A DNA stretch of 63,775 bases, the filler included, from Collodictyon triciliatum (lineage: Eukaryota), in the NCBI GenBank assembly GCA_043381765.1. It is 9 parts of 9 records of this genome, joined end to end, with 100 filler letters (N's around TTAATTAATTAA, not from the genome) between each part and the next. Parts side by side here need not be neighbours in the genome. Positions count along the whole stretch, not along the records: positions 37,921 to 45,395 come from JBHJMP010003880.1; 8 more parts are not named here. One strand, written 5' to 3'. Positions 14,293 to 59,652 of the stretch are shown here, in pieces. The stretch's first letter is position 1. Every line of letters begins with the position of its first letter. The position numbers were made by a program, and so were the translations under genes. The notes below the pieces were generated by a model that saw only the letters and a list, made by a program, of their open reading frames with translations, searched no databases and was not told where the DNA came from.

Positions 14293-14471
14293 GAGGAAGT
14301 GAGCCGCCGTCTATTTGCCTGTGCGATAAAACCCTGCCTTGCCTTGCCTCGCCTCTTTATCGGATGCGGCTCGCCCGCGGCCTGCGAGTCATGTGGCGGG
14401 CGTTTATGTGGTGGGGGGAGGCGCTACACATGATACAGGGGCAGAGAGAGGGGAAGGCGCCGCTTATGCGG

Positions 14472-14862
14472 TCATAGATACAGGGTCCTTTTCAGGTAGG
14501 CGAAGGGGGCGTCCAGGTACTGAAGCAGGGTGACCCTCTCCTCGCCAATCACGGGGAGAATGATGCTCGATGCAGACACGAGGATTTGGCCGGCCTCCTT
14601 GAGCCGCCTGGGGGTGGGGACGGGGAGCAGATGGCGGCCCATGCCGTAGAGGGCAACCGAGAAGAAGTGGAAGGCAAGGAAATTTGGAGACGGAATCAGC
14701 CTGGAGGCGCTTTGTCGTTAGCATGCGGCTGCCAGAGGCACGGGCAGGATGGGGGATGGGAATGCTCATACCCGCAAAGGAAGCCAACTGGGCCGGCAGA
14801 GTAGTAGCCCCCCTTCTTCAGGTAGTCGAAGCAGGCTGCTCTCATGATGGACATGCCAGGAG
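14472..14862 (-). CDS. SQLE: Squalene monooxygenase (epoxidase), last two exons only; 5' part is off the contig
   Basis: Exons 14862-14772 and 14700-14472 splice to MRAACFDYLKKGGYYSAGPVGFLCGLIPSPNFLAFHFFSVALYGMGRHLLPVPTPRRLKEAGQILVSASSIILPVIGEE, the characteristic squalene epoxidase C-terminus. Not present in the ORF track. Confidence 0.9.
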
Positions 14863-14974
14863 CTGGGATGAGGCGGAGTAGGGATTAGTTGAGTGAGCGA
14901 TTCGGCCCTCCGGGGGTCTCTGTGCCATTGATTGCGGTGTACCAAGTGTTTGGTAGCAGAGAGTGTGTGCTTCG

Positions 14975-14977
<3 letters not shown>

Positions 14978-15072
<95 letters not shown>
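14978..15072 (+). repeat. (GT)n microsatellite at contig end
   Basis: Read directly. Confidence 0.95.
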
Positions 15073-15172
15073 NNNNNNNNNNNNNNNNNNNNNNNNNNNN
15101 NNNNNNNNNNNNNNNNTTAATTAATTAANNNNNNNNNNNNNNNNNNNNNNNNNNNNNNNNNNNNNNNNNNNN

Positions 15173-22449: not shown

Positions 22450-22951
22450 CGCATAAAATGATAATAACAATAATAATAATGAAGATAACTATTGCTCATA
22501 ATATTATATTTATCTTTATTATTAGATGAATATAATATCAGCTCATTTTTATTTTTTTATTTTTTATCTTTTATTTTTTATCTTTTATTTTTTATCTTTT
22601 ATTTTTTATCTTTTATTTTTTATCTTTTATTTTTTATCTTTTATTTTTTATCTNNNNNNNNNNNNNNNNNNNNNNNNNNNNNNNNNNNNNNNNNNNNTTA
22701 ATTAATTAANNNNNNNNNNNNNNNNNNNNNNNNNNNNNNNNNNNNNNNNNNNNCATAAAAAAACATAAAAAAACATAAAAAAACATAAAAAAACATAAAA
22801 AAACATAAAAAACATAAAAAAACATAAAAAAACATAAAAAAACATAAAAAAAACATGAAAAACTAAAAGCCCTATCCACCGTTTTTCGCAACGCGACCGT
22901 TCTTTTTCCCCACCCACGCCTGCGATCACAAGTCTTTAAGGAGGACACACA

Positions 22952-27499
<4,548 letters not shown>

Positions 27500-29713: not shown

Positions 29714-30330
29714 CTTTGGGGGTTTCTCTCTCGATTTTTCTCTTTCTGACCTTACCTTTTGATTTTTTTTTTTTTTTTTTTGCTGTTTAATACACATGGT
29801 TTCTGGAGTTAGTAAGGTTGTTACATATATATGCTTATGTTCATGAATTTTTTAATTCTAAAATCCACCATAATCTCCTAGTATGCATCCTTAATGATTA
29901 TTTCCCAACATTATCTTGCCATTTATTTGCCCGACTCGTTTCGTTTATTGTCTTTTACTTTGTTCCTTATACAATAGCTGCTTATCACTCTACAAACATG
30001 CAACAGTCATGTTTCTCACTCTCCTGTCCACTCCAAATAATAAAATAATATGGAACTGAAAAAAAGGAATATGGACATGCCTTTCGACACACATATCAAT
30101 ATACCAAAAGAAACATACACAGCAACGAATAAAACAAAATCCTTTTTTTTTTTTTTTTTTTTACGGCAAAAAAAAAAAAAGAAAAAATTCAAAACAAACA
30201 AAAAAAGAAGAGCACCAAAAAAAAGATCGTNNNNNNNNNNNNNNNNNNNNNNNNNNNNNNNNNNNNNNNNNNNNTTAATTAATTAANNNNNNNNNNNNNN
30301 NNNNNNNNNNNNNNNNNNNNNNNNNNNNNN

Positions 30331-30430: not shown

Positions 30431-32451
30431 CTTTTGCCATGTGAATAGTACCCATGCATATATGTAATCGCTAATAGTATGGTTATTTTCTGTAAGTATC
30501 ACTTAAAATAAATTTTTATAAATTTTGATGGGGTTTTATAATGTTTTGTAAATTTCACTAATTACTTCATATGTATCATTCCGCTGTTTTCAATGTAATC
30601 TATCGACTTTTGAGGTACACGTGACATCTTTCTACAAGTTTTAATCATTTTCAACCCTACTTGGTGCATAGAAATGAGCCCAAATTTAGTTTCCGTACCA
30701 AGCTGACCTGTACCCGAAGCCTACTCGTGCTACTACTTTGAAAAAAAAGGCACAGTAACTATGCCAGGCTGTAGAAAAGTACAAAAAACTATTCCTATAA
30801 TGGAATAAAAGGCTTTTGAGCTACAGCATTGTTCATTTCAAATATATAATTGCCTTTGTCATGAATCTCAGTAATGGATTTTAAGAGATGGAATGTCATG
30901 AAAGAGTATAACAATTTTCAGATTCAATCATTTTCCCAATAACAACCAAAAATGAGCAACTGGATAATGAAATATATAGTAAGTAGGCAGTTCAAAAAAC
31001 ATTCAACTTTAGGGCTGCACGAATAAAGGAAAAATACTTTATGGCTCCATAAAATTACCACTGTGTACATAGTTTACTGAATTAAGTGCTTAATTGATGT
31101 TGTTGAATTATTTACGTTCGTGCTCTAGTCAGGTACGCAAAGGTTTTTCTATGGTTGTGTATGAGACACAGAGAAGAAAAGTGATTGATTTGGTATCCAG
31201 TACAATCTGTAGTTCAAGCAAACAATTTCTTTAAGTTTTTCCCCTTTATTCGATCCAAGGGAAGGAAGGATTTTTAGATTTTTCTACAGTCCGACGCGGC
31301 TGTTGTGCTTTGGTTCAAAGCAGTGAGGCGTGTCTATTAAGGGATGCAGGCCAGCAGGATACGGAAGCTGGATTCATGACTCGTCACTATGCAACCGAAA
31401 TGGTCGAGAATAATTACACCTCTAAGGAGCTGCAACTACCAAGGGCCTTGACCTGGATTCGATCACATCGCATTCATGATAAGATAACAGCAACGCCCTA
31501 GTAGGCACGATTAACATCCCAGCGTGCACAAAAAACTCGTAGAAAGAAAAGAGAGCCCCTAAATTGCTTTCTACCCAGCACCAAATTTTAATTCAATACA
31601 TATGTCGAAGTTATATAGTCCTGCCCTTATATGTTTCAGGTTTATATTTTTTTAAAATTTTGTCCTTACGATCGCTTCTAATTATTATGACATGGTTAAG
31701 TGAAGAAAATTAAGTATGGACTACTTTTGGTAGATACCCAATATATTTGAGTTTCGTGCTATGTACACCAGTGCTTTGAGCAGATGGGACAATTGTGCGA
31801 GAATAGAGGTGGTTGCGTACCAAGGTTGTGGGTGTTATGTCTCTGACTTTAGATACACAATCAAAATTTCTCCAATAAGCTAAATTTTGCAGTGCCTTCT
31901 CTTTGTCTATTCATGGAAATTAGAATAAATATGATAGTTTCTTACATTTTGTCTTATGTATATCACCACATGAATTTTTACTTGTATATAATGATGTTGT
32001 ATTGGATTTTTTCTCAACAGCATTTGTATTCCGGAGGCGGAATACAAATGCTTGCTGCACTAGCCAACTACCAGACAAGGAAGTGTTTCTTCCACATAAG
32101 GCTACATTCACAGAACATTTGCCTGGCTCTATGTGGTGCTATTGCTTTCCGTTGGGTAGAATTACTGCGGGGTAGCTTCGTTCTTTTCAAAAACAAAGTC
32201 TGTCAACGAAACCAAAACACCCTTATCATTTTCTATGCGCACCCAAAGTACCCTTCTATCGCCTATCAAATGGCATCACCCACGTGATACCTTTCGGGCA
32301 TAGTAGCAACAAAAACACCCACTGAGCAATACATCAACATATACTTCAATTTTCTCTCCTTTGAATCAAATAAAGGATTTTTTTTTATTTTCTCTTCTGT
32401 ACAGAACCAGGGCTCATTCAATCCGTCTTCGCTTATTTCATTTTTGCCACA

Positions 32452-33533
32452 ATGTCTGGGCAAACTGCGCTCCTTGAAGAGCTACGGAAGATAACTAAGG
32501 ACTTGGATATTCTGGCTCTCCAAAATCGTACGTCGCTGCGTCTTGGTTACAGAAATCTAACATCTGTGCCGCGTGGGGTCTTCGAATTAGATCGCTTAGT
32601 GCGACTTTATCTTTTTTGGAACCAGTTATCGACACTACTGCCAGAAATATCACGCTTGACGAGTCTTCAAGTTCTCGATCTTCGCTTCAACCAGTTGTCC
32701 TCATTACCACCAGAAATTTCGTGCTTGACTAGTCTCACGTTCCTCGATGTTGGTATCAATAACCTGTTGTTGCTACCACTTGAAATATCGTGTTTGACTG
32801 GTCTTGTATGTATTGATATCTATAGCAATCCGGTAATTATTTTTTTTTGTTTATGCAAAGAGGAAAAAAATCATCTAAAAGTAGTATTTCTACAGATCGA
32901 AAAGCTTCCTTCCCATATCACAACGCTCACAAACCTGAAGGAGCTTCGGATAAACGCAGGATTTGGACAGACTATTAAAAAGGCTCCACACGGAATCACA
33001 AATCTCCCATGCTGGAAAAATACAGATAATGAGGATTATAGACATATACGTGCCTTACAACTCTACGCAGTAAGTACCAAAAAAATTCTTATCTAAGAAA
33101 AACATTAAGCATATCAATTATTTTAGTACGCTTTACTTCGATGAGCTTTTGAAAGGAAAAAATATTTTAGGATACACAACAAGTTACACCTCTTACATCT
33201 CTTGTATCTAAAGTGGATGACCAACGGTGCATGTTAGTATCACTAACATCCAAAGTGGATGCACAACAAACTACTCTCGCATCCCTCACATCGCTTGTAT
33301 CAAAAGTGGAGATATTGGAAAGTACACTTGCAGGTTACAAATCCAAAGTGGATATACAACAAGGTACCATCGCCTCCCTTGCATCTATGGTGCAAGAACA
33401 GCAAAGTACTATTGCTTCCCTGGTATCTCTTTTGTCCAAGGTGGATTTAATGATGACTAGAATGAATGACCTAATGCCTCTGATTGAAGAGAAAAAGCCC
33501 AACGCAGGAGTTGAGGGGGTTGACCATCTCTAA
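32452..33533 (+). CDS. Leucine-rich repeat protein with C-terminal coiled-coil repeats, 3 exons
   Basis: Exons 32452-32832, 32896-33069 and 33171-33533. 23-residue LRRs (LxxLDLxxNQLSSLPPEISxL). Tail carries about six xQxxTLASLxSKVD-like repeats. Confidence 0.88.
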
Positions 33534-33745: not shown

Positions 33746-34963
33746 CCACTCGTAAAACAAATCAAATTTTTTTTTTACAAATCTAATTAAAATGCATATG
33801 CTTCTAGACCGAGTAACCAGGATCTGAATCGATGTGCTGCAATATCTTTGAATAAAATTCAACTTTCATTTTTAGATGATTTTTTGTTAATTGACTTTTT
33901 TTTTAATACTAGATAGGATAAAATTATTGAATAAGCTACTTTAAAAGTTTATTTAAAAATAATTCAATACAAATGCAATGAATGTGGTTTAATGAAAAAA
34001 TGCTATTTATCAGATAAAAATGTAAAATATATCTTACTTCATCAGAACAGAGAAGGATGAAGTTAAATTTTTTATTCGTTCCAAAGGTGAAGTTATAACA
34101 TAAGCATATAAAACTGTTTATTTCTGTATGAATTTTCAAAAAAAATATAGGATATCAATCACTCTTATGAGTTATTTATATTTTAAGCGATTGAATCTCG
34201 AATCAAATAAAGGGAAAAAATTAAGTTATTGAAAAATAAATTATTCAAAATTTTAGATAATAATTTATTGATAAATGAGCAATCGAGGAAGTGCTTACAT
34301 ATTGATGGTAATTAATACCAAAATTTACTTTAAATTAGTCATAAGGGGTTTAAATCAGAAATAAGACTCACAGAGGTATATTTTAGTTCCTTTAATTTCA
34401 GACAATAGTTAATAGACCTAGTAAAATCCAGTTGATAATATCACTTCGTATTTTTATTTTTTTAATTTTTTGCTGTAAAGATCAAATGAGGGCTTCTTCC
34501 ATTTTTACTTCATTATATTTATGATGTATAAATATTTATTCCTTGACAATTTCGTGTGCGATCATTAATAACTATGCTTGAATATAAAAAAATTGGACTT
34601 TTAAAAAAAACTTTAATTCCTTCTCATCACCAAAAGAAAATAAAGGAAAATCCAGAAATTATTCCACATAAGACAATTTTGTGAATTTACATTATTGCGA
34701 AGCATTTGAATTTTTATCAAGGAAAATGTAGATGGAATGCCATTCTTTTCCTTTAAACCACAATACACTAACAAATTGATGGTGCATCTCTTCTTTTTTT
34801 GTGGTCTAAACAAATGCTCGGTTCTTTATTTACTTGGTACTAGTCTCCTTCGTATGCAACAGCAGGATGTGTTACAAAAGAGTATTGCGGCCTACTAACA
34901 CATTGCTTGAATAACCTGTTCTTGAAGGCCAGAGCTCAACCAAATTGCCTTCAATCTATTATC

Positions 34964-36413
34964 ATGGGTAACACCTTTTCAAGTGATGCCACAATCGAAG
35001 AGTTGAATGACTTCAACCAGGGCAGGGGCGCATCTACCTCCCAAAACCGCACAACACTTGACCTTAGATTGAATAATCTGAGATTTGTGCCGCATAGAGT
35101 CTTTTTGTTCGATAGTTTAGTGCAACTGATTCTTTGGCACAACCTATTACCATCTCTTCCACCAGAAATATCGCGCTTGACAGGTCTTACATTTTTCAGT
35201 GCAGGAAGCAATAAACTATCGTCGTTGCCACTAGAAATATCACACTTGACTGCCCTCAAAGAATTATATGTCCACTACAACGAACTCTCATCTTTACCAC
35301 CAGAAATATCTTGTTTGACACGCCTCCAGAAGTTTTTCGTTCAAGAAAATCCGGTAGTATTTTATTTGCATGTGAAAAAAACATGCCTAAAAATAAATTA
35401 TGCAGATTGAAGAGCTCCTCCCACAAATATCTGCGCTGACGAACTTGAAGGTGCTTTGGATCAAGGGCTATGGAACGCAAATCACTATAAAGAGTGCACC
35501 ACGTGGCATTACAAATCTTCCATGCTGGATCAATAGAGGGAACAAGGATAAAAACCATTTACATGCACTTCAGCTCTATGAAACAGTAAAAAAAATTCAA
35601 TTTAGATTACCAAGAATATTTTTAACAAAAAATAAAAGTAGATCGATTCAGTGAAAAAGCCGGAATGGATTCCAACCGACTTTCAAGTCGGGTTTAAATC
35701 CTTGAGTTTGTATGGAATCTATCTTTCTGAACTACCGAAATGCATTACAATCATGCAGAGCCTGACTTACCTTTGTCTTAAAAAAAATTGCGTAATATTT
35801 TTGTTGGAAAATTAATTAAAATAACAGCGTATGTACGACATTATATTTTGAATGTAAAAATAAAAACCATAATTTAATAGTTCTTTGAGTTTCCTGATTC
35901 TGTTTGTTTGATGCATTCCATTATTCGCTTGGATATATCAAATAATAAGGTAAAGTGTACTATTAAGTAAAACAATGTGTAAATTATACCATTTTACAAA
36001 ATATTTTTTTCATATAACATTGTTTATAATATAAATTAGTTAACCAGGATCCCTCATGCGATCAATCAACTATGCAACCTTGAAATACTGGATGCAACAA
36101 ACAATAGGGTAATAAGTGTAGCAATAATAAGAGATCATCTGTAAAATGGTTTATCTACGTCTTAATTTTCCGGTTTTCTGTTCATCGAATTTTTCTTTTG
36201 ACACGCTTTCAGATTTAGAACTCTTTTATTTTATTTTTGTTTAAATTTTCAATTTTATAGTATTCAATAGCTTTCTATATTAAAAAGATAATCGAACTGC
36301 CAAGATTTGAAGAAAAATTAGGCAGCACCAAAAAGCATGCAGAACTTGAAGCTGAAACGGAGGCTGTGGAAACTACAAAAACGAAACAAACAAATAAATG
36401 TGCACTCTGCTGA
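34964..36413 (+). CDS. Leucine-rich repeat protein, tandem paralog of the upstream LRR gene, about 5 exons
   Basis: Starts MGNTFSS. Shares QNRTxLxL, the LRRs, the NP|IE intron position and APxGITNLPCW...ALQLY with the upstream gene. Further LRR exons near 35642-35790 and 36040-36108; last exon ends KCALC-stop. Confidence 0.8.
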
Positions 36414-38130
36414 TACATTATTCATGACTTGTGTTTTTTTGAAATAAGGGAGAGAACAATTGCATTTCCTCTAAAATTAATATGGTTCATTTTGTTATTT
36501 TCTATTAATTATATCCTACTTTTACATAAAATTAACTTAATTAAAGCATTTTGATCTGAATTAAAAAATTACAAAGATTTATAAAAAATTCAAATGGTAT
36601 GGGTACTTGTTCTGTATAGAACTCTTAAAAGTCAACATTTTAGTAAAATATTCTTGAGCTTGATATTGGACCAATATTACTTCTTGAAATAATAAATAGA
36701 TAAAAGTGGATGATGAAGACTATTTATGGCTAAATAGAGTCACCGCTATATTTCAAGCTCGAATGGAGAGAATTAATCAATCTGAAGTCAGAAAAAAGAA
36801 AAAGTTCTTCAATAAAGAAACGTGCCAATATAATAATTCAAGAAAATCAACCAACTTTTAAGCTGAAATAGTATCTATACTGATATAATGTGCTTAAAAC
36901 AATTGCAATCAAGCAAGCTCTTTAATTGAATAGAATAAAAGAAAGGTTAAAAACACTCAAATTTTGCAAAAATAAAAGAAAGAGCAAAAAGTAAACAAGA
37001 AAAGCTAACATCTATGTCTTTGTTTTTGAAATAAGGTGCTTTATTTCTACGCCCATTTTCACTTCATTTGGATGATAGTGATATTTAGATCTTTTATTGA
37101 TGTGAAAAGTATAAAGACTCTCCTCGGGGAAGGGGGAGGGTAAGGGATATGTTTATATTTGAAGGTGGTGGAGTATGAAGTCTGCAAAATCGATGGTTTG
37201 ATGCGAAGAGAAGATTGGTAGAAAAGACTCATTGACACACAGGTTTAGTATATGATATTGATGAGGATGTTTATTGGTAACATTATATCAATAAATATCG
37301 GAGATTATTGGATTGTGATGTTGCTTTTATGATTCAATAGTACAATAACCACCTTCAAAAGGAAAATGAATACTAAAAGGATCGAATTTTTTTATGATAA
37401 TCTAAGATTTTGTTTAATTGTTATTCAATTAAATTCCACTTTGAGTGAAATAAAAGGAAGACATTTCTTAGACTGAATCCCAAAGACATATTGCAATCAT
37501 TTTCCTCTTATTAGATTCAGAATTAGAGCAAAGACTTCAAAAATCTAAATGTGATTGCTAATCTAAATTTTTAAGTGATTTAGTGATAAAAATAAAATTA
37601 TTTACATTTTATTAAGCAAATAGTGTCGAATGCCAGGTTGTCTGCTTCGTAATTTTTTGTGGAAGTATTTCATACGAAGTCTGTTGATACAATCCTTAAT
37701 AATTAATACATTTCTACATAGAGGAGGGCGAGATGGCCATACGGTCGTTCTCCGGAGGAGGAGGAGGAGGAGGAGGAGGAGGATGGAAGTTGAAATTTGG
37801 TCATTGATAGAATCTATGTTNNNNNNNNNNNNNNNNNNNNNNNNNNNNNNNNNNNNNNNNNNNNTTAATTAATTAANNNNNNNNNNNNNNNNNNNNNNNN
37901 NNNNNNNNNNNNNNNNNNNNTATCTATCTATCTATCTATCTACGAAAAAAAAAGCGTCTGTCTATTCATCGAAACTCATCATGTGTATTACACCAGCTGA
38001 AATGATAAGTGTCCAAGTGCATTGTACATATTTTACACACTCATCACCTTGATTCTGATCCTTTATGTGAATAATTGGGTTTACTTACTCACTTGTAAAC
38101 ACCCTCTGTCTATGCATTGCGCGCTAAACA

Positions 38131-40206
38131 GCCCACCACAAATTGGAGAACATTGGGAGTCGAAAATGTAACAGCTTTTTTGAAACATCAGTGTCTGATA
38201 TACCTAGTATTCATCACATCGAGATAAAGCGTTCATGTATACCTCTCGCATGATCTTTCCAAACAGGAAAACCCCAGCAGATGCTTTCTCTCTACTTCCT
38301 ACACATAACCAATCAATTCCCGACTTTTTACCCTCTCATTGAACTACATCTCTGAGTGCAAAGTTGTGATTCATTTCCAGGGCCATCAATTCGTCCTGAT
38401 GGGAACTGCAGAGCCTTCAGCAGCACCCGAGACAGCTCAGGCAGAGGCCAGCTCTGCGCCTGTCGTTGAAAAGCCGAGTGAAGTTGTGGACGTCAGTTTT
38501 CCGTACTTTCTAGCGATTAATCAATACATCCCATGGAAGCTTTTGCCGGTTTCTCTAAAGGAATTCCAGCATCTCAGGTAGAAGAGAGAAAATATCCTGT
38601 TGGTCTCATGAATCTGGGAAACACGTGTTATATGAACGCTACTCTTCAGTGCCTGGCTACAGTTTCGGGGTTGATTCAGGCCATGGCTTGGTTCACCAAT
38701 AATTACGAGACTCTTTGTTGTTGCTGCGATTGATTGAGTAGATTAGGAAGTTAGTTTTACATATGGTCATTATGTTCCATTTAATGAAACACCTCAGCCG
38801 CATGCCCTGTATATTAGATGTTTTATGCGTATTTGAGAAGGGTATCTATGTGCCCTAAATCACTCACCGTACAGAATGCCAGCCGACGCTCAGGGGCTCG
38901 ATGGAAATACTCGCATTGTGGGCGTGTTGTCTCAACTTTTCAGGGATATGAAAACTGCTCAAAATTCCATCCCTCCATTTGTTTTCTGGACGGTAAGAGT
39001 TTAAATCACCTCCTTCATTTCTTATTCTCGTTCTACTTTTAGTCGCCATCATTGTGCCATAATCATCTCCAACATCCATTAAAGTTATACTCGTGAAACA
39101 TGCCACTCTCTCGGAGTTTTACAGAAAATCCAATCCTTCCATACTTTCTTGTCCCTATTTACCTTGCTTATTCCTCTCTCTTTCAAGAAATGGCAACTGC
39201 GTTAATTATGTGCATATTTGCTACATAAGAGGTGGTTTGAGGCTCATATTCTTGTTCTTGTCCCAATTCCCATATGCGTTGAAGCTTGTGTTCCCTCAAT
39301 TTTCGCAAACAACACCTGCTGGTCAGCCCATGCAGCAGGACGCAGAAGTAATGCTGGAGTCAGCTTGTCACAAGTGTGAAACAGCGCTTTGGCCAGTCAG
39401 TAGAAAACGCTGTCGATCGATTGTTTGGCGGCGAATTTGAAACAGAGTAAACAGCCTATGCCTCTTGAACATTTGTCGGAGTTTCTGACCTTCCCATTTG
39501 AAATGAATGCGCATGTGCTCAATGGATGTTTATGAGCAGGGTTGTTTGTACCGAAGGCAGTGAGGCTCCCCAAGCAGGTATCGATACTATTTTCAAGCTA
39601 TCCTGTCATATTAGCGTCTCCACAAATCACCTTTTGGAGGGCCTCACAGAAGTAGGAGTTATATCTTCATATTGCCAATCCACTGTTTCCTAGGTTCATT
39701 CGTTTATATACTTATTTCACTTTTTTCTTTTATTTTAAATGGTACAGCCGATTGATGATCAGCTTTTCTAATACTTCCTTTGCTTTCTTGCAGGTTCTTG
39801 AAGAGCCAATCACAAAGCACTCTCTTGCACTTGGGCGAGATGCATTATGCAAGAAGGTAGGAGACGCATTCTGACCCATTCATACGATATTCTATTCATT
39901 TCTTCTCATCATGCATGGAAATCGACTCGGTGAACTGCAATCTATTGATGACAGTCACCAACCGTGTTGCTAAAATTATTTTACTATCCCAGTCCTCCCG
40001 TATTTCGAAATTGCCGCTCTACTTGACCGTCTCTTTTGTGCGGTTCTTTTGGAAACCGAAAGAGCGTGTGAAGGCAAAGATTCTCCGGGCTGTTCGGTTC
40101 CAGCACACACTCGATGTCTACAAATTGTGCACAGAAAGCCTCAAAGCAAAGTTGCAGGCGAAGCGCCAGTATTTGCGAGACCTGGCCTATGCAACAACAA
40201 AATCTG
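38131..40206 (+). pseudogene. USP14: USP14/Ubp6 ubiquitin-specific protease, disrupted and 3'-truncated
   Basis: End of UBL domain (FVLMGTA), Cys box GLMNLGNTCYMNATLQCL, FPQF...MQQDAE, KLSCHIS, LPLYLTVSFVRFFWK..KAKILRAVRF. Lesions: TGA formed across the 38690/38875 junction, AT in place of AG acceptor at 39274-39275, +1 insertion at 39349. His-box exons are absent. Confidence 0.85.
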
Positions 40207-40489
40207 TATGTTTGCCGCAAATTGCATAGCAATACATCATCGCCTCGTTTTATTAGTGATTAATTGCGTCCCTATTTTACACGGCACTACTATACCGCAG
40301 CATATCCAACCCCTGCTACCCACGCAGCCTATCAACCAGTTGGGTCGCCCACCTGACCAACTCGCTATCACTGATTTCTTTCCGGTGCTACCCTCTCCAC
40401 GGTACTGTCTTCCCCTACTCGCGTTTGCTCTCTACCATGCGCACCTATCTCGCCCCTTTGTATGGCATAACCTTGCTACACTTTGAATG

Positions 40490-41612
40490 GAATAAAGGAA
40501 TTTTTTTCTTGTTTTCGTCTGTGTGAATCAAAAGATACATTCTGTTTGAATTCGTTACAGATACAACCATCTCATTGTTTGTATTCATAATACTATACAT
40601 GCAATTATTAGTTGTATAATTGTTGCATCCCTTTTATGAATCACAACATCATCTGACACAAGTGTATCTTTCATTACGTCCGCAAATTCTACACCATCTT
40701 TTCTCTTATATTCCTTCATCAACATATAAATTTTGTTATCAATTATATCATTAAACGTTCCAAACAATTCCTCCATCTTGGACGTCTTTGATCCATAGCA
40801 CGTTCCAATAATTCTTTTTAGTAAAAAAATATTGCATAAACAAAGACTTACATGTGTCCTCGGTCTGCGAATACAATACCATCGCCGTGTGGAAGCTGCC
40901 CATATCTTGCGGTTCAAATAATAGACGCACCAACCACTGAACCATCTCGTTAAACACCTTGGTTTCTTTTATTCTTCCTTTCAATTTTATGTAGGATGGT
41001 GGAGATGTTGGATTTGGTTCGCTAGCCATTGTTAAACACCTTGATATTAAAACTGCTAAACTTTGTCATCAGCTGATGAATTCGATTGTTATACAGTTTA
41101 TCAGTGATATCCTCGTCACTTAGCATTTGACGAATTTTACCCACCTTCTCAATCACATATCCTCAAAATGTATTGTACGTAGTGGCAGGTAATGTCTCGG
41201 GCCAATCTGGACGCAGCACCAGACATAGTATTTGTCTCTTTTGTTTGTCCTCCGCCCACTTATCCAATACATTAAAACATTTGTCGCGATGCGTGAGCTT
41301 TAAATGTGCATACTGGCACTCAGTATCAGTTTCATTGTAAAACTTGAGTGTGTAATTATCCATCACCAGCGCTAGTCTGCCGTAGAACTGAAAGCTATCC
41401 ATTTCAAACCCCTCTTTCGTTTTCTTGTAATGTATCTCCATGCTGTTCTTCCAATCTCTTAAGAACCTCGCTGAATGTTAAACTCAACAAATACTTTTTA
41501 AACAAGCAGCAAAGACTTGTACGTAATTTTTTTTTTGTCTATTGATTCCCTTGGATATTCTCTCTCTTTTCAAGCTGTTGAGTGGCATTCGAGTTACTGT
41601 TGTCTGAAACCA
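40490..41612 (-). pseudogene. D5/SF3-type (DUF5906-like) primase-associated helicase remnant
   Basis: Read across frameshifts: KWAEDKQKR...YNTF*G, MVQWLVRLLFEP, decayed Walker A MVLYSQTEDTCKS, LFGTFNDIIDNKIYMLMKE (Walker B region), motif C IMNTNNEMVVSVTNSNRMY. Confidence 0.75.
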
Positions 41613-42952
41613 TCGCGCTTATGGATAGTCACGTTGCCTCTAGATAGCGTACCATTTCATTTACCAAGACAAATCCAATCTTGAGCCGCCCGTCGTAGTC
41701 GCCAGACATCTTACGACATTGTGAATCTTCTAGCGCCACAAGAATCAAGTACTATATAATTTCATCTGTGAAATTGCGACTGAATTTGTTCATTTTTATT
41801 TTTAAATGTTTTATGGTTTATTTCCTCCTGAAATTCTTCAATCATTTTGCGCTTTTTATTTTCATACAAATGAAAGACATCTGCTGACTTAAATTCTGAT
41901 ATCTCATTGTGAAATATCTTGTCTGGATGATCCCTCACATTCCTCTTGAATCTTATAATGTTGACAGGAATCTTTGGAATAAATGCATTTAAACCCTCGT
42001 ATTTAGCAATATAATTTAGGATCTCGCACACAAATGTGAAACCTCTTCGTGTTACCATCTATCCAGCACAACGAATTGTTATTTGCCGGCAAACCCCATA
42101 TTTTGCTCAGTTCGTCCGGGTCTTGGATATTTTTATCTCCATAGTCGATGCGCACAATATCTGGACCATATCTCAAAAACAATGACATCACTCATACAGT
42201 CTCTCTTTTCCTCTTTTTTCAGATATCTTTAGCCCACTTCAGTTTTCTCTAAACATGAAATTGATGTTTCTTTCCATTCATCTTAATAAGTACCTTTCAC
42301 ACTTTTTTTTTATTACTATAATTTCTTTGCCCTCTTTGGTTACATAATACCAGGGATAGGCTGACAAGCCAACATCTTCACCATCCTGCACAAAATTGAA
42401 AGGAAGAATAAAAAAAAACCAGGGATAGGCTGACGGAATGTCGTTCTTACTAATAAAGGTCTTTGCGTTCATCTTTGCTAGCTCGTTCATATGCTTATTT
42501 TTAGGGATGGTTTAAAGTTGCAATTTTTTCGTACTATCTTCCCTCCTTAAACTTGCCGCCCGCTTCACCCCATGCCACCCTGAGGGTATGGCACGAGCTG
42601 TTTTTCGAGGCCCAATCTTCTAAACAATCATTTTACTTTTAAATTTTTTTTATAAAAAACACATTTATATAAAAAAAAATTGAAGGGAAATAAAGCTTAT
42701 TAACAATCTCCAACCCCAGCAAAAGATAAAGCGCGTGGCAAGCGTCTGGAGAGGGTGGGTCGTCAGTCCTCAAACTTGATAACAAAAGACAGATCGGCTA
42801 TCACCTATTAGATTGCATCCATAGTCTTTTTCTTTGGCCTCTTCCTATTGGTATTGTCCAGAGAATACAAGTAAAGCTAAAAGTCCTCCAAGTATTCAAA
42901 TTCATCATGAACATCATCGATAATTAGTTTGAACATAATAGTTCAGACATGT

Positions 42953-43641
42953 TTATTTGAGATAGTAAACGATCTCTGAGCTAAAGTTCTTGTATATCTT
43001 CGGCTTTCTGGGTGCTGCTTGCAAATCGGTAAATATGGAACAAAAGTTTCGTCCGTGCAATATTCCAGGATTTCATCGAATTTAGATTGCGAGAGATTCG
43101 TCAACCCTTTGAGCGCCTCCCGTTACCGTTGGTTGCTCGTATGAAACGAAATCAAGTGATTTGCATTCTAAAGCGGCTTCGCATTCGTCAGTCATATGGC
43201 CTGGCTCACAATTATGATGCTGAGATTGTAATGCATGTGCTTGAGAAAGTTCTTGAGCATCTGTTTGGTCTGACGTTCAAAGACGGTGGGCAAGTCGCCA
43301 AGAACTAAAATATACGGCTCTCCTTCCAATCGTCATCCTTGGTTATATATTGAAGAATTGTGTCAAATATCTCATCAGTAAAATTATCAGAGCTACGTGC
43401 TTGTGTAAATCTGGTTCACTGATAATCACGTCCGACATTTTACCATCAACCATACTAATAGAACAAAAAAACACCTTGCATAATACTTGTAATATAATTC
43501 TTTTTTCCTAAGCAAATTTGCTATCAACATCCTTTTGCCCGACCCCATTTTTGCAGATATCAGCATCAAGTGAGGCGTTGACTCTCCGGGGTCTAGCAGA
43601 GCCCCCAGCATAATCTGCTTTCTTTTTTTAATTACAACCAA
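42953..43641 (-). pseudogene. A32/FtsK-HerA-type virion packaging ATPase remnant
   Basis: Walker A LMLISAKMGSGKRMLIANLL, Walker B YILVLGD, KHMHYNLSIIIVSQ (decayed RH...SQ motif), FDEILEYCTDE and IYKNF near the end. Contains internal stops. Confidence 0.85.
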
Positions 43642-43748
43642 GCGCTTGACTTTGAACTAGTTTACTTTTATTCTTCCTTCCAACTTTGTGCAGGACCGAG
43701 GGGGGTTTGTTGGCTTTTTTCCTCCATATTGTATTATCGAAATAAATT

Positions 43749-44075
43749 TTATGCGTCAAATACATAAGCTCGTGTTGTTCCTTTATCTACTGCTTCTGCT
43801 AAAGCTTTTTTCTGTGCGCGTTTTTGCATCTTATAGGTCTCTAGCTGTGTTGGGTACTTTACAATTTTGGCCATTTCAGATTTTAGTTCTACTAGATCGC
43901 TTGATGGAGCTGTGGCTTTTTGGTAAATTTTTATGGCCTGAGTCATCTCCTTGGTCTTTTTGACCTTGGTTGCTTTTGGCTGGATTTTTGCAGGGTGGGC
44001 CCTATGCTTTTTCGATGCAACGCGTTTTGGTTTAGCTTTTTCTATGGTATCTATTTCGTTTTATGTCTCGCTCAT
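43749..44075 (-). pseudogene. Small Lys/Ala-rich basic viral ORF next to the ATPase
   Basis: Reads EKAKPKRVASKK...MTQAIKIYQKATAP...QKRAQKKALAEA. Intronless; upstream part appears frameshifted. Confidence 0.35.
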
Positions 44076-44116
44076 AATCATCCGTAGTAAATAGTTTCTG
44101 GGGTAGAATATAGAGA

Positions 44117-44826
44117 ATGCCCATTACCTTCATATAGAATTATCCAACAAAGTGCGCAGTAGTATTTCAGACTTTAATTTTGGAACGACACAAAACAGAT
44201 ACGTTGCGTCCTCAGGCAGAATTAGGACTGAGAGCGCCCAGATTTCCTACATCGTACACAATGTCACGTCTGCCAACAATGAGCTAGCCATTCTCTGTAG
44301 TGTTGGTGGCAGCCCCGTTCCATACTATATTACACGAGTAGATGGACTATTTACATTGAATGAGTAACTGTGTAACATCAAAACTAAAATGAACGTAGCA
44401 GCACCAACACGATTAGTATCTGTTTCTGTTATTCTTATTTCAGGCATACAAAATGTTGCCATCAAAGCAGCTAAACTTTATTGCTACGTGTGAACTGTTT
44501 GTAAAATCGTCAATGTGTCCAGAAGTTAGTGAACTGCAAGCAATGACTGTCACAAGAACGTTTTATTTCGTGTACCCAGTCAGCCCGGATGTGAATCCAT
44601 CGAGTTTAGCCAGTAGTGTCAGAAGCGATTGCACCTTAACAAAGATACCGCTGAGTACCGGGTCACGGTGATGTAATTATTACGAGGCCAAAGAAAACAT
44701 GCTAACAAAAAAGGTATGCTACTCTTCATTCGTTCGTGGAGTATTCAGCCGTCGGGTGGCCTGGCCAAATCAATTATTCAATTGCATGGCTACAGCTACA
44801 CGTTACAGGTAATTCCCGATTTTTAA
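44117..44826 (+). pseudogene. Minor capsid (penton)-like protein remnant
   Basis: SISDFNF...IRTESAQISYIVHNVTSANNEL...ITRVDGLFTLNE*LCNIKTKMN, and C-terminal TLTKIPLSTG...IIQLHGYSYTLQV, resemble PLV/virophage single jelly-roll penton patterns. Confidence 0.6.
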
Positions 44827-45495
44827 ATGTTTGGTAAAGTAATGCTTTTTTTAAAATAAAAAAGAAAAGTTTCGGAATTTTTTTGAGCAGACGCAAAAGT
44901 ATTAAAATTGGATTTTAACGGATTTTCTACACAATACTTCAAGAAATTTACAGTATGGTCATTTCAGTTTGGCCGGATGGCAGTAGTTGGTGGTCTCCCA
45001 TCAGTTAATGGCACAGGTATGGAATGGTGCGTTGTCTCTCGAGCACAAAGTGCATCTTCGGGAAAAGATGAGGTCACTCATTGATCGACGACGATTCAAC
45101 TGCCACTTGGACAAACATGAATTTGGCTTAGGACCCCTCCACTGAATTTCATAATGGAACGAGCACCATCGTTCAGACGGATATCTACTATCTAAGATAG
45201 CGTGTATTTTTTTAGTGGGAAATCATATTTCGTATAAGTGTAGATATAAATGACGGTGTCGTCTCAACCGCGATGAACCCTTGAGGCGCTTCGCGAGCTC
45301 TGAATTGTATTTATATTACATTTTTCCATTTCGCCCTTTTGGGCTGCTACACATTTTCTTGAGCTATCTGAAATCTCTTATTTTTATCCTATTCTNNNNN
45401 NNNNNNNNNNNNNNNNNNNNNNNNNNNNNNNNNNNNNNNTTAATTAATTAANNNNNNNNNNNNNNNNNNNNNNNNNNNNNNNNNNNNNNNNNNNN

Positions 45496-48481: not shown

Positions 48482-50682
48482 CTATATCAGGACGCTTAGT
48501 CCCACAAGCATGCAGTCGATTCCAACAACCAAGACTACAGACATCACGAGGCACAGAAGCCAACCAATAAAAATGACTTTCAACGTATTCCACTTGACCC
48601 GCTCCGTAGTGGTGTTGCCCAGCCCGATTCCAGCTATGGAGCCGACAATCACTTGGGTGGTGCTGATTGGAATCTGAATCAGGTTGTTTATGAGAAGTGC
48701 TATGGCAGCCGAGAGCAAGACTACAAATCCTCCAGAAGGTGTTAACTTAGTGATTGACTCGGCCATCGTGTGCGTCACTCTGGAGGAGAAAAGGATAATC
48801 CCCAGTGCAATAAAAGCTCCGTAAACGAAGATAATCCACATGTCCACATCACCCAACTCATCCTCGCGCGCTTCTCCACTTGATGCGACTTGCAGTAAAA
48901 TAGATAGCGGAGCCGCTGTGTTGGCAACATCATTGGCTCCGTGCGATAGACTGAAAAATGCCGCGCTGATTAGCTGTAAAATGCAGAATATCCTTTCGGC
49001 ACCGAGTCTATCGGCCTATGTAACGCACATTGAAACCTTCGAGGTGAGTTTGGCTTATAAAAGAGACAAGATTTAGCTGGACTAATTGTAAAATGTGCGA
49101 TAAAATAGAACCTTGCGAATCAAATCATCTGATGAGCCATACTTCAGAACATGCGTTGATACAATCAATGATGATTTCTCTATTAGGGGACTAATCCGGA
49201 ATGAAAGCTGTACAAGCCACTCGTGTAGAACAAAGTGTGTCATAACCATGGCCTTAGTGATGATAAAATATTTTTATTTTGAATGAAAATTATTCGTATA
49301 GTCTACAAATGATTGGATTTTAAAAAAGTGCAAGAGATTGATTCACAATTTTGGTCAGGTATATTAATAATGACATTAAGATAAAAATGAGGAAAAGTGT
49401 AAATATTATGTTCATTAAAAAACAACAGCTGTTTGAGAGGTTCGTTTTCTTTAATTTACTTACAATCAGCATTAAACCAAGAGATATAAAAACAAGAAGT
49501 AAGGAAGTAAATTGGTTATCTGCCCCGAACATAGCTAGACCAACATACATCGGAAAGATAAAGAAAGCTATTCCAAACATGATTGGCATGAATTTCCGAG
49601 CTCTCCTTTCGGATACACCTGGTGATATGACGATTATACATTTAATCTGTATGAGCTACATATTCGGAACTAAAGTCAAAGGAGCTGATGCGTAGCAAAA
49701 ATCGCTCAATAGGCGATGAATACAATTAATCATACATCAACACTAGTATGGTGAGAGACTGCTATAGGCACGTAATTATAAAAGTGTATTTTGTATGCAT
49801 GCAATTCAAATTACACAATCTGGACAAGATAAATTACCTGGCTGAAGAATGTATTTAGCCAACATATTTGAGAGAAGATAAGATAGCAAGCCTCCAACCA
49901 AAGGAGAGATTAGCCAAGATAGAACAATGTTTTGCATTTTTGAGCTGATTCCGCCTCCTTGCCCCTATGACGTAAACCACCGAACACAGATGAGTTCTTG
50001 CAAAAAAAATTCTTTGAAATGAAATAAATAGAAATATCTGACAACGTGAACATAATTTGCTTTATTCATACAAACCTCATTAATAAGTGCCATGATCATC
50101 AATGAAGTTCCAGTCACTTGCGTTGTAGAGATAGGTAACTTCCAGTAGCTGAATAGAAATATAATAAAAGAAGAACCAATCATGGTGGACAGAATCCCTA
50201 AAAATAGCAACTTTTCTTCTCCCTGTAAACAATTTAATTAGTGAGAATCTACAAAATATTCTCATTTTGATTGAATTGAAGACATAATAGCTGGAAAGAA
50301 AGATAGAATGACCGAGTTTCGAAACATACGAGCAATTTTGATGAGATATTGACATTTACAATAATTATGATTAATAAATGACAATGATGATAATAGTAAT
50401 GGTAATAGTGATAGTGATAATGTAATAATGTGGCGAAGAATGTGAAACCTCAAAAGCGTCAATATCAACATAAGTAGTTTTTGATGATTTCGTTATTTCG
50501 CGCCCTATTGAGAAAGCGCCAACCAGCTCGAAAAAAACCATGTACCGTGTTGCCGTCTTCATCGACAAAGACCCGCCGCCAACCGTGACTCCGAGGACAT
50601 TAGCTCCATCATTGGCCCCGATAGACATCGCATGAAGCGCCCCAACAATGCATGTGGCTATGGTTAACCCTTCAAAGTACAT
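48482..50682 (-). CDS. PiT/PHO4-family (SLC20-like) inorganic phosphate transporter, multi-exon
   Basis: Both signature repeats present (IGANDGAN and HGANDVAN), two LPISTTQ/IPISTTQ motifs, KLTPSGGF, many hydrophobic helices. Confidence 0.93.
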
Positions 50683-51938: not shown

Positions 51939-52038
51939 NNNNNNNNNNNNNNNNNNNNNNNNNNNNNNNNNNNNNNNNNNNNTTAATTAATTAANNNNNN
52001 NNNNNNNNNNNNNNNNNNNNNNNNNNNNNNNNNNNNNN

Positions 52039-52441: not shown

Positions 52442-55400
52442 TCATCCGTCGTGGTGGTAAGTGTGCCTGTGTTTTGTTGTTTTGTCGGGGCAATTCGGGC
52501 CTAGTCGACATGGAATCATTACTGATGGAAGTTGGATGTGAGCAAAGGCTCTTCTGTGGGCTCGGTCGGTTAGTAAGCTGCAATTCCCTCCCTTCGGGCA
52601 AGGTGGTTGGTCATCGTGATAGAAATCAGCGTGATGCGGATACGCACCAGCATCTTTGCAAAGGATGCCAAAGCGGCAAGGATGGCTGTACTCCTTCGTG
52701 TGGGGGTGGTCCTTGGTGAATTGATAATGGCACGCCTGTAAGTGTGGACAGATTGGTTTGAACTTGTGTCTGAAAGACTCTCTGTGGCTAAGTGTTCCAT
52801 AATCTTTGCAGTGGTATCCATGAATACACTCCGGTGGCTCTTCATGCGCAACGTCGAGGCTTCTAGACCTAGAACCCGAGTGATTGCGGACGTCAGATTC
52901 AGACCGTGTCCCTGATTGTGAAAAAGGAGATAAACCAGGGGTTTTCGAAAAAGGGGTTGGCTTTTCGAGACGTGAATAATGCTCCTCGATCAATTGGTAG
53001 GGAATTTGACCCACAACACGACAGTCGGCAGAGGGTCCCAATGCCAAGCAAGAAACTGTCATTCCAGGTGATATGAGGACAAGTGAAACCCGGATTGAAG
53101 AAGCCACCCATCTCGAGGTAAAACTGAACTCCCTCTTGTTGAAAATATAGCTTGTGCGCCCGAAAGATAGACCGAGTGTATCGCCTTCGATTGTGAAGAC
53201 GTAATTTATAGTGGACGAAGCATCCAGAAACATCCCAAAGTCCTCTTTGACAAACAAAATATCCTTAGACTGGATTGGGGCTGAAAATGTATCTGGAACA
53301 TAACCCAAAAGAGTCAAACTGATAGACCGTGACACATCCACCACTAAGGTCATTCCAAACCCTCCATGCTCATGACTCTCTCCTCCTTCCAATAAAAGAG
53401 CAAAATTTCCACCATGTAGTCCAAACTCTATGAAGAAATTCTGGTGGCAACCATCTCGAATAAAGTTAATTCGTTCTTCAACTTCCGAACTCCTGAAGGA
53501 TAAGCCGCTCTGAAGGAATGGAGGACAGATTAAGTCTCTTCCTGGGGAGCCAGAAAGTTGTTGGCGTCTAGGTTCCTTGCCGTCTATTGTGACACGAATA
53601 CCATGAAAAGCGCTTGCAATTAAGACAGCCTTCATTGCATTCAACCCATAAGAAAAATCCTAGCCGAATAGGAAGAGAGAATGATTAATAAGGGGAAAAA
53701 GTGGGAAATAAGAGGGAAAAATATTCATGGGTTATAAAAATATAAAAATAAAATAAAACTAAAAATATAATAATACCAATACTAAAAATAGCAATAATAA
53801 ACATAAACATAAACATGTTGCAAGAAAAAGAATCTATTAATTGACATGTTGAATTTTATAACTTTGAATGCACGCAAGACAGTACGCGGTCACTTATAAT
53901 ACCTGCTGTAAAATAACTTCATCGACATACCCCGGCGGCAAGCATGAGTTTAGAGAACATCTTATCCTCTTCCTATCATTCGTTGCCATAATTAGTCCAA
54001 CTATTTGCTCCTTTGTGAGTCTCTCTGAACTCTCTGTGGAGATAATATTTTCGTAATGATGGACCATGTGACTGGTCAAATCTCTGCATATTGAACTGAG
54101 CATAATGTAATGTCCTTGCATCTCGATAGGTTTAGTTTCTTGTCCTGGAATAAGCATGACAGTTTTTGGGTGCATCAGATACTCTTTTTTGAAAATTATT
54201 GTGACATTTTTTTTACCCTAAAATAGTCCCAATGAGTAATCAATCATAACACATAAATAACAATATTCCAATAAATTTAACTATTTTTCTTTTAAAAATG
54301 TATCATGCAAAAAAAAAGTAAAATATACAATGGGTCCATGTAATTCGCATGTCAGTGATTTGAAATCAAAATCTCTTTTTTTCGTTTGAATACGGACTAA
54401 TAAATCAATGTAGAAAATTGCTAATTCTTTTAGTAATGTCACCACGTTAATGGGTAACTTCATCTCATTCAAATATTCGGATAGCTTTTGAAAGCCATCC
54501 TCATTTGGGTGATTTAGATGTACATTTGCTGCCTGAGAATAATATGATATTCTTGATAATAACGATTGATGAATGAATCCCTTAATAAGACTCCATACTT
54601 CACAGGGATTTCGTGGAAAATATCTACCAATTAAATGTGACAGGAAAGCAAATCCCTCTACAAGATCAAGGTCGGCCACATTGGTTGCCTCATCAAAGTC
54701 TTTAAAGATAGAGAATGATTGAAATACTAGAAATATGTCCAGCAAGTTCGAATCAAGGTGCAAAACAGGCCTTGAGCTCTCGATTATTTCCAACAAGATG
54801 TCATACGTCTCTGAGGTTTGTGGGCTTGGGTGATGTGTTTTTTGAAGACTGTGTTCTACAAGTGTATCATAGTTGAAAGTTGCCTCTTTGAAGCATGAAT
54901 GTGGGATTCGCGGGGTATAATGTGCAAACTCTGACAAATGAGCAAATGATAAATCGACACAGCTCATTTCTTGGGGGCATTTTTTTCCAAAATTTCCCAG
55001 TCGATGATCAAATTGATTTCCGTGATGGATATTATAAAGCAGCTGTTTGCATTTGTATGAAGCGTCACACTTTGGTAGGTATATATGAATGTACCTAGAA
55101 ACATGAGCTGGATTGTCCAAACTATCACAGAGTTCCCCTTTTTCACAAAGGTGGCTTAAATTCGAAGAATGTGTAGGAGAGTTAATTTCCTTGCATTTAA
55201 GCAAGTTGGGACATACCGGGGCGAATGGGTGTGTATGTGTCTGCATGTGCAAAGGGTTTGAAAAAAAAGTGCAAAAAACACCATAAGGACACTTCTGTTT
55301 GCAGTGACGAAATTGAGATTCATGCTTTGCTGATGACTTTTTGTCACATAGGGTGCCATATGCACACCTTTTCCGGTGCCAAAAAAGCATGGCATGATTC

Positions 55401-59510: not shown

Positions 59511-59652
59511 NNNNNNNNNNNNNNNNNNNNNNNNNNNNNNNNNNNNNNNNNNNNTTAATTAATTAANNNNNNNNNNNNNNNNNNNNNNNNNNNNNNNNNN
59601 NNNNNNNNNNACGAAAACCAAAAACCAAAAACAAAAAAACAAAAAACAAAAA

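Follow-up and report, generated by a model that had tools for sequence, protein, structure and literature searches.

The stretch of DNA analysed here (hereafter the window) comprises 63,775 nucleotides from the eukaryote Collodictyon triciliatum (GCA_043381765.1), and one of its contigs, at positions 37921-45395 (JBHJMP010003880.1), carries a run of broken viral genes that is very probably the truncated and defunct remnant of a Polinton-like virus (PLV) lying in an intron of the host gene USP14. From ~40501 to 44823 this contig consists of short stop-to-stop frames on both strands without splice structure. Four broken intronless genes can be recognized in it, in the same order and orientation as on L005, a 4.8-kb metagenome contig, namely a primase/superfamily 3 (SF3) helicase, an A32-type ATPase and a small basic protein on the minus strand, followed by a penton on the plus strand. 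The kind of element is already well known; what is new is another endogenous PLV remnant, of a clade otherwise found only in nameless metagenome contigs. The viral features, in window coordinates as used throughout, are:

40501..42472, minus strand: primase/SF3-helicase pseudogene, truncated at its 3' end (hidden Markov model (HMM) and tblastn; helicase core at 40966-40508)
42473..42954, no strand: spacer separating the helicase gene from the ATPase gene, no gene recognizable
42955..43712, minus strand: A32-type (FtsK-HerA) packaging ATPase pseudogene, full length, broken (phmmer, tblastn, HMM)
43737..44078, minus strand: small basic protein gene of ~110 codons (tblastn, HMM)
44110..44823, plus strand: penton (minor capsid, single jelly roll) pseudogene, full length (tblastn, fold of a relative)
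44887..45084, plus strand: possible N-terminal remnant of a fibre-like protein (weak pairwise BLASTP)

The window strings together nine unplaced contigs of ~7.5 kb, with lengths roughly descending, and adjacency across the linkers between them is meaningless; hence the neighbourhood of the element can be read within 37921-45395 alone. Related loci were fetched via an ATPase alignment, which gave 83 (4 from a viral collection and 79 from metagenomes), and all 2026 of their open reading frames (ORFs) of at least 60 residues were compared with the contig by tblastn. Two further metagenome contigs among these loci, L007 (10.4 kb) and L020 (15.6 kb), are referred to repeatedly below. A single public sequencing run, here called X1, is listed as sharing words with the contig (share 0.05), with no RNA run among the matches listed, and 160 of its records were aligned on it; the viral genes are without X1 cover, the absence of which is evidence neither way.

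A phmmer search with the C-terminal 130 codons of the ATPase (43656-42956, with X at the stops) recovered 8 proteins at E<=1e-3 among 1.84 billion, the best matches reaching 1e-17 (43% identity) and 4e-15, and Pox_A32 was detected above the curated Pfam cut-off in six of the seven relatives scanned. The 240-residue ATPase of L005 aligned by tblastn with 43668-42965 on the minus strand (E 7e-36), while the pieces matched by the ATPase HMM lie in three frames and together span profile positions 10-239 of 240; we infer that the gene began at 43712 (MEEK). Walker A now reads AKMGSGKR and Walker B ILVLGD, the first Asp of the latter having become Gly. This Asp is one of the 3 positions changed out of 13 that at least 85% of relatives conserve, of which 8 persist and 2 are unplaced; the ten nearest relatives have 46 invariant columns, of which the window ATPase retains 27 and differs in 14, with 5 unplaced. 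The reading frame is further broken by 3 internal stops and at least 4 frame changes. A FastTree phylogeny was built from 66 ATPase ORFs of the loci plus the phmmer database proteins, with the window sequence placed in 179 of 239 columns and gaps at the breaks. It grouped the window as sister to P0004, L005, L006 and L007 (support 0.92), inside enclosing clades of 9 and 11 sequences (supports 0.96 and 0.93). The identity of the window ATPase to the nearest eight sequences is 41-44%, and its terminal branch of 0.71 is six times the median of 0.12. All 20 ATPase relatives listed are nameless metagenome or read-assembly proteins (JGI, ENA, Logan), and viral contigs scanned with the ATPase remnant as a single protein yielded nothing.

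The two genes beyond the ATPase complete the block shared with L005. The small basic protein gene was recovered at 44075-43737 with the 109-residue L005 protein (tblastn E 5e-21; HMM E 1e-19) and has one in-frame stop past codon 6. Among the loci its homologs occur only in L005-L008, and it belongs to no Pfam or PHROG family. The 256-residue penton of L005 aligned by tblastn in three pieces (residues 1-123, 129-214 and 226-254) at 44110-44820 (E 6e-43); no fewer than 2 frame changes and also 2 in-frame stops interrupt the gene there. Neither PHROG nor Pfam matched the penton of the intact relatives. A profile of 23 penton relatives matched the PBCV-1 chain 8h2i_bG (deposited as 'P1v1') with E 1.3e-5. 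An AlphaFold (AF2) model of the L005 penton (pLDDT 82, pTM 0.71) had the mavirus penton as its best solved match (E 7.7e-9), followed by Sputnik, adenovirus penton bases and PBCV-1, with low TM-scores of 0.3-0.4 to the solved pentons. Compared with predicted viral structures, the same model found two proteins of Tetraselmis viridis virus S1, which we take to be a PLV (E 1.9e-12 and 5.9e-11); further neighbors include many giant-virus minor capsid proteins, adomavirus LO5 and the pentons of virophages and adintoviruses. As with the ATPase, all 10 penton relatives listed are nameless metagenome or read-assembly proteins, and a pattern scan of the viral collection with the close penton clade returned no match.

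In the primase-helicase gene, the Walker A position reads SQTEDTCKS and is unrecognizable as such. An HMM of nine helicase relatives (868 positions) matched three collinear segments in successive frames, at profile positions 503-546 (E 1e-3), 546-609 (2e-9) and 608-649 (0.02), and residues 522-610 of the 837-residue L007 helicase aligned by tblastn at 40929-40621 on the minus strand (E 5e-6). The primase N-terminal part gave only weak matches, which are nonetheless collinear upstream: L007 residues 129-147, 150-214 and 266-316 (E 0.004-0.007) and 366-487 (E 1.3). The start of the gene may lie at 42472, to judge from a match with E 5.4. The helicase core is preserved, whereas roughly the last quarter of the gene is gone, as it breaks off at ~40508; the relatives' primase-helicases are 768-837 residues long. 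The relatives themselves match Pfam DUF5906 (5e-12), PriCT_2 (weakly), VapE-like proteins and the PHROG 'DNA primase'.

The spacer at 42473-42954, which separates the helicase gene from the ATPase gene, gave no match at E<=0.01 with the 2026 ORFs apart from two short matches of 12-21 residues; L005 has a similar gap of 510 nt at 1878-2388. Beyond the penton, 44887-45084 resembles residues 17-80 of a 480-residue fibre-like protein of L007 (E 0.002 in a single-comparison BLASTP) and lies where the fibre-like gene lies in L007 and L006, after the penton gene. A two-sequence HMM of that protein had no match at E<=1, and a relaxed tblastn of all ORFs against 42.2-42.96 kb and the part beyond 44.8 kb gave only noise. 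In the relatives, the fibre-like gene was seen beside the penton gene at L007:7901-9343 and in the first 270 nt of L006.

An earlier note on this DNA, made from the sequence alone, had placed an endogenous virus of Polinton-like or virophage type at 40490..44826, where intron-bearing host DNA seemed to switch to packed, intronless, broken frames. The switch is indeed present at ~40501, with short stop-to-stop frames on both strands from there on. The three gene calls made there also stand: that of an SF3 helicase with the HMM of nine relatives (best E 2e-9), that of an A32 packaging ATPase with the phmmer and Pox_A32 results, and that of a penton-like protein with the tblastn match and the fold of its relative. 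The stops it reported are found in the ATPase, the penton and the small gene, and the frameshifts in the ATPase and the penton. It had recognized no capsid, polymerase, protease or integrase, and none of the 2026 ORFs of the 83 related loci produced a contig match for any of these; HMMs of the integrase and the other L007 genes likewise had no contig match at E<=0.01. As to the best match to cellular or phage genes that it had named as a possible refutation, the ATPase and primase of the intact relatives have only generic phage-type matches in PHROGs and Pfam, and their penton none. The limits of the element need revision: the span of ~40501-44823 holds, the left edge at ~40500 is a truncation rather than an element end, and the right edge lies at 44823 or beyond, so that the element may reach the end of the contig.

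That the viral DNA has resided in the host genome is independently supported by fragments of a retroposon inside it, of which two lie between perfect target-site duplications. Within the viral DNA, a 40-58-nt repeat is present in three copies, and it is found nowhere else in the window:

40962..41030, minus strand: retroposon fragment 1, 69 nt, ending AATAAAAGAAAC (repeat family; X1 depth 210)
42366..42418, plus strand: retroposon fragment 2, 53 nt, ending in AATAAA and an A-run (repeat family; X1 depth 368)
43660..43705, minus strand: retroposon fragment 3, 46 nt or longer, immediately within or ahead of the start of the ATPase gene (X1 depth 90)

Fragment 1 lies in the helicase gene between exact 13-nt direct repeats, GTTAAACACCTTG, at 40949-40961 and 41031-41043. 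Fragment 2, in the helicase N-terminal part, is flanked by exact 16-nt direct repeats, CCAGGGATAGGCTGAC, at 42350-42365 and 42419-42434. Ahead of 42366, X1 has a loose end (...GCGAACCA) identical to the 5' extension seen in fragment 1 (40962-41030), from which it follows that fragment 2 is a shorter 5' truncation of the same element. Fragment 3, at the ATPase start, has no clear target-site duplication; it accounts for the gap of ~56 nt between the small gene and the ATPase gene, against 6 nt in L005, and one X1 contig joins 43705 to 41006. All three copies have AATAAA and an A-run on the A-rich strand, with a common 3' end and a variable 5' reach. These features agree with retroposition mediated by a long interspersed nuclear element (LINE), in that a poly(A) signal with an A-run and 5' truncation are seen, and duplications, for which ~7-20 nt are expected, flank two of the three copies. 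The family has no Rfam match or tRNA-like head. We considered whether the three repeats could be a viral promoter or coding module and rejected this, as they are absent from the 83 related loci, occur in many X1 contigs without viral genes and show two duplications. The copies therefore represent separate 5'-truncated insertions of a dispersed host family into DNA that was already in the host genome. The endogenous state proposed in the earlier note is supported both by the collinear, broken hallmark genes and by the target-site duplications of the retroposons.

The clustering of the three hits of one family inside 2.7 kb of viral DNA, with zero in the other ~55 kb, is odd in itself. Under even placement, the chance of all three falling in 4.3 kb of ~59 kb is near 4e-4, a value calculated post hoc. 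An insertion bias of the retroposon toward viral DNA, as in the virophages of Cafeteria, is possible. A preference of retroelements for endogenous virophages is documented there for Ngaro elements (PMC8547959), and in Hydrurus a retrotransposon has been found inside a PLV (PMC10120064). The more elaborate proposition, in which a primase-helicase PLV of the metagenome clade, endogenous in the intron of a housekeeping gene, was hit three times through retroelement targeting by a LINE-type mechanism, we regard as rather unlikely.

The host surroundings of the fragment are confined to the left part of the contig:

38167..40205, plus strand: USP14-like host gene with exons and introns (spliced X1 contigs, match to human USP14)
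40298..40500, plus strand: 3' part of a dispersed host repeat, ending AATAAAGGAA (X1 depth, loose ends)

X1 contigs join the exons at 38.2-40.2 kb by seven joints, four of which are listed with GT..AG. The exon at 39978-40184 corresponds to residues 309-377 of the 494 of human USP14 (E 3e-15), and it matches yeast Ubp6 less well (E 5e-9). At ~40205 the last visible exon gives way to GTATGT, donor letters read from the sequence. The X1 transcript contig of USP14 extends 313 letters further, with letters that are absent from this contig, and no USP14 C-terminal motif or exon occurs anywhere in the window, so that ~110 downstream codons are missing. Given the GT donor behind the exon, the transcript continuing off the contig and the lack of a C-terminal motif in the window, the viral fragment to the right of 40205 most likely lies in a USP14 intron, the next exon being unseen. 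Between the exon and the viral DNA lies the dispersed repeat, which is either distinct from the retroposon family above or related to it. The summed X1 depth rises to 680-1090 at 40171-40670, against 2-23 on the USP14 exons, and X1 loose ends stand before 40298 and behind 40500, beyond which the X1 contigs continue A-rich. No second copy of this repeat occurs in the window, and it has no Rfam or tRNA match. Its end, AATAAAGGAA, coincides exactly with the cut in the helicase gene and meets the viral DNA without an A-tail. Because the A-run of the X1 contigs is missing there, the junction at ~40500 would be a deletion, a rearrangement or a mis-join rather than a simple insertion.

The relatives indicate what kind of virus this was. 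PLVs are described as having a small genome with terminal repeats, an integrase, a double-jelly-roll capsid protein, a penton, an A32 ATPase and a primase-helicase (PMC10120064; 10.64898/2026.06.19.733378). The fragment has the penton, the A32-type ATPase (dead) and a replication module other than the protein-primed polymerase B (pPolB) of the Maverick type; a double-jelly-roll capsid gene, an integrase, terminal inverted repeats, a target-site duplication and a size of 14-40 kb are not seen in it. Several of these features are present among the relatives. L007 carries on its 10.4 kb an rve integrase (Pfam 6e-9), a DUF5906/PriCT_2 helicase, the ATPase, the penton and the 480-residue fibre-like gene. 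L020 has 69-nt inverted repeats at both ends with 91% complementarity, and a weak rve match (1e-4, under the Pfam cut-off). A capsid candidate, 571 residues long in L020, belongs to a family common to L001, L013, L015, L016 and L020. Searched by sequence, the capsid-candidate profiles A3 and A4 had no match among solved structures, and the matches listed for the structural model are all double-jelly-roll proteins, those of Sputnik (1.5e-13), iridovirus, PBCV-1, faustovirus and mavirus. In the contig, no capsid-candidate family of the 83 loci has a match. The gene kit, together with relatives of 10-16 kb with rve, terminal inverted repeats and a double-jelly-roll-like capsid candidate, identifies the source as a PLV. 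Of the hallmarks of the neighboring groups, pPolB, an rve integrase and an adenain-type protease, which would mark a Maverick/Polinton, were not found in the contig, and pPolB and an adenain-type protease are equally lacking in the nearest relatives L005-L007. A virophage-type capsid and cysteine protease are not in the fragment, and for the relatives' capsid candidate Sputnik is the best match, with giant-virus capsids nearly equal.

Several points weigh against the identification as an endogenous PLV. Neither 18 window fragments nor three read-throughs with X at the stops produced anything significant in Pfam or PHROG, and every gene assignment consequently goes via intermediate, unnamed relatives. 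A capsid gene, an integrase, a terminal repeat and a target-site duplication of the virus itself are all missing from the fragment. The nearest contigs L005-L007, including the 10.4 kb of L007, show no capsid gene either, and the capsid-candidate model is of low confidence (pLDDT 51). As the left end is truncated, terminal repeats and a target-site duplication of the virus cannot be present, and the capsid gene may lie past the truncation or past the end of the contig. The A32 ATPase, the D5-type primase-helicase and the penton are, moreover, core genes of giant viruses too, which raises the alternative that the source was an insertion of a giant virus (Nucleocytoviricota). To this could be added that many structural neighbors of the penton are giant-virus minor capsid proteins, that one relative from the viral collection, L001, carries the name of a giant-virus bin there, and that a continuum from 15-kb PLVs to giant viruses has been described (10.64898/2026.06.19.733378). 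Such an origin nevertheless has only a slight probability, given that the four genes lie within 4.3 kb in the same order as on the 4.8-kb contig, that the relatives are contigs of 10-16 kb with rve, one of them with terminal inverted repeats at both ends, and that other giant-virus genes were not found in the contig. A Nucleocytoviricota insertion would be expected to be large and to carry dispersed core genes such as polymerase B, VLTF3 and RNA polymerase subunits; here just the ATPase, helicase and penton are seen, within 4.3 kb, although a larger insertion may extend beyond a contig this short. L001 itself, at 12.9 kb, shows penton, ATPase, capsid candidate, D5_N helicase and ThyX genes side by side and looks like a small PLV-type genome rather than a fragment of a giant virus.

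A second set of reservations concerns the decay. Many stops in endogenous PLVs have been found to be assembly artefacts (Bellas et al. 2023, PMC10120064); in the Hydrurus element, error correction removed them. The contig here being short and unplaced, the stops and frameshifts might similarly result from the collapse, in a short-read assembly, of near-identical copies that are in fact young and intact. We find this scarcely credible, since the damage includes substitutions, both at columns that at least 85% of relatives conserve, the Walker B Asp among them, and at 14 of the 46 invariant columns. The helicase gene is truncated and without a recognizable Walker A, retroposon fragments interrupt two genes, and the ATPase branch is six times the median. 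The decay thus exceeds the indel-type assembly artefacts described for endogenous PLVs (PMC10120064), and the fragment is dead and without function today.

The third concern is the junction. Position 40500 is spanned by no read or contig, and X1 contigs run out there in an A-rich stretch; together with the host repeat that stops without an A-tail, this leaves room for a mis-join of the unplaced 7.5-kb contig. The viral part could then belong elsewhere or not be host DNA at all, having come instead from a virus or from some other organism in the sample, and it adds to this that the contig stands unplaced in a chain of contigs and that just one public run, with a share of 0.05, has words in common with it. 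Against a foreign source stand the three fragments of a host repeat family inside the viral DNA, two with perfect target-site duplications, which a free viral genome would not have, and the dead state of the genes, which is likewise unlike free virus DNA. What retroposons and dead genes argue for is a place in the host genome, not this particular position in it. Overall, a mis-joined or foreign viral part seems highly unlikely, and the endogenous PLV fragment in USP14 remains the interpretation that we favor.

On this interpretation, the following history can be proposed, the order of which we infer. The source would have been a PLV with a primase/SF3-helicase replication gene and a morphogenesis module of A32 ATPase and penton. 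The virus, or an already integrated copy, would have entered the germ line or nuclear genome of the host, most likely by an rve-type integrase as in the relatives, and the copy may have come to rest in the USP14 intron. One end would later have been lost, leaving the helicase cut at ~40500 with the host repeat now adjoining, and the part beyond the penton gene would either have been lost or lie off the contig. Stops, frameshifts and changes of catalytic residues have built up, and three separate 5'-truncated copies of one host retroposon family have inserted.

The fragment would accordingly record a past infection of this host lineage by a virus clade otherwise known only from environmental contigs. 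By linking a host genome to an anonymous metagenome clade it suggests a host assignment for that clade. The nested retroposon fragments prove from within that the DNA resided in the genome and give a means of dating, and their clustering is a small, testable hint that retroelements prefer viral DNA. Endogenous elements of the PLV and virophage kinds are now known to abound in protists, and in animals, apart from the Maverick-Polinton groups, to be rare.

The remainder of the window, on other contigs, bears host-type exons and the linkers between the contigs:

11121-11474 (minus), 23991-24326 (plus), 32374-33093 (plus), 34844-35407 (plus) and 48485-49015 (minus): host-type exons
7489-7588, 15073-15172, 22654-22753, 30231-30330, 37821-37920, 45396-45495, 51939-52038 and 59511-59610: eight 100-nt linkers (N44-TTAATTAATTAA-N44)

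Among the exons, a Rac/Rho-like GTPase, a guanylate-binding-protein-like P-loop and a PiT-type phosphate transporter motif were recognized by eye, and two encode leucine-rich-repeat proteins (Pfam LRR_8, 2e-10 and 5e-9). Two long intronless ORFs on different contigs, at 2069-5725 (minus, 1219 residues) and 54284-57817 (minus, 1178 residues), are paralogues with 26% identity over 461 residues (E 9e-35) and a common region rich in repeated Cys/His motifs. The 1219-residue ORF has a microbial-type PARG catalytic domain (Pfam 4.6e-7), and the pair possibly represents a lineage-specific or mobile gene family; searched against the Atlas, the 1219-residue ORF had no usable match. The blocks at 9001-11000 and 14001-15000 are GC-rich (0.56-0.61, against 0.24-0.44 in most of the window); the long frames overlapping on both strands in them suggest an effect of composition rather than genes.

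Among known systems, the fragment may be compared with several lineages. Like Maverick/Polinton elements and the adintoviruses of animals, it belongs to the same virus realm, with penton and ATPase folds and, to judge from its relatives, rve-mediated integration, but in those viruses the replication gene is a protein-primed polymerase B, whereas here it is a primase/SF3-helicase. Aquintoviricetes-type PLVs, including Tetraselmis viridis virus S1, share small genomes and a primase-helicase module, the likeness to S1 itself being one of penton structure only. With the eukaryotic genomes that carry PLV-type ATPases outside the Maverick-Polinton groups, the likeness consists in the PLV-type ATPase gene; only three animal groups are reported to have such ATPases (10.64898/2026.06.19.733378). 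The mavirus-type virophages integrated in Cafeteria, or endogenous mavirus-like elements (EMALEs), resemble the fragment in the penton fold, in their integration in a eukaryotic genome and in being interrupted by retroelements (PMC8547959). They differ in having pPolB, a cysteine protease and a virophage-type capsid and in being mostly intact, and their retroelements are 6-kb Ngaro elements, in contrast to the polyadenylated fragments of 50-70 nt found here. The endogenous PLVs of protists (PMC10120064) are alike in the kit of penton, A32 ATPase and primase-helicase, in nuclear integration, in fragmentation and in the nearby retrotransposons. Their gene kit includes an rve or tyrosine recombinase, and set beside them the Collodictyon element is a truncated remnant, 4.3 kb long or more, that lacks capsid gene, integrase and terminal repeats and has decayed at the level of substitutions.

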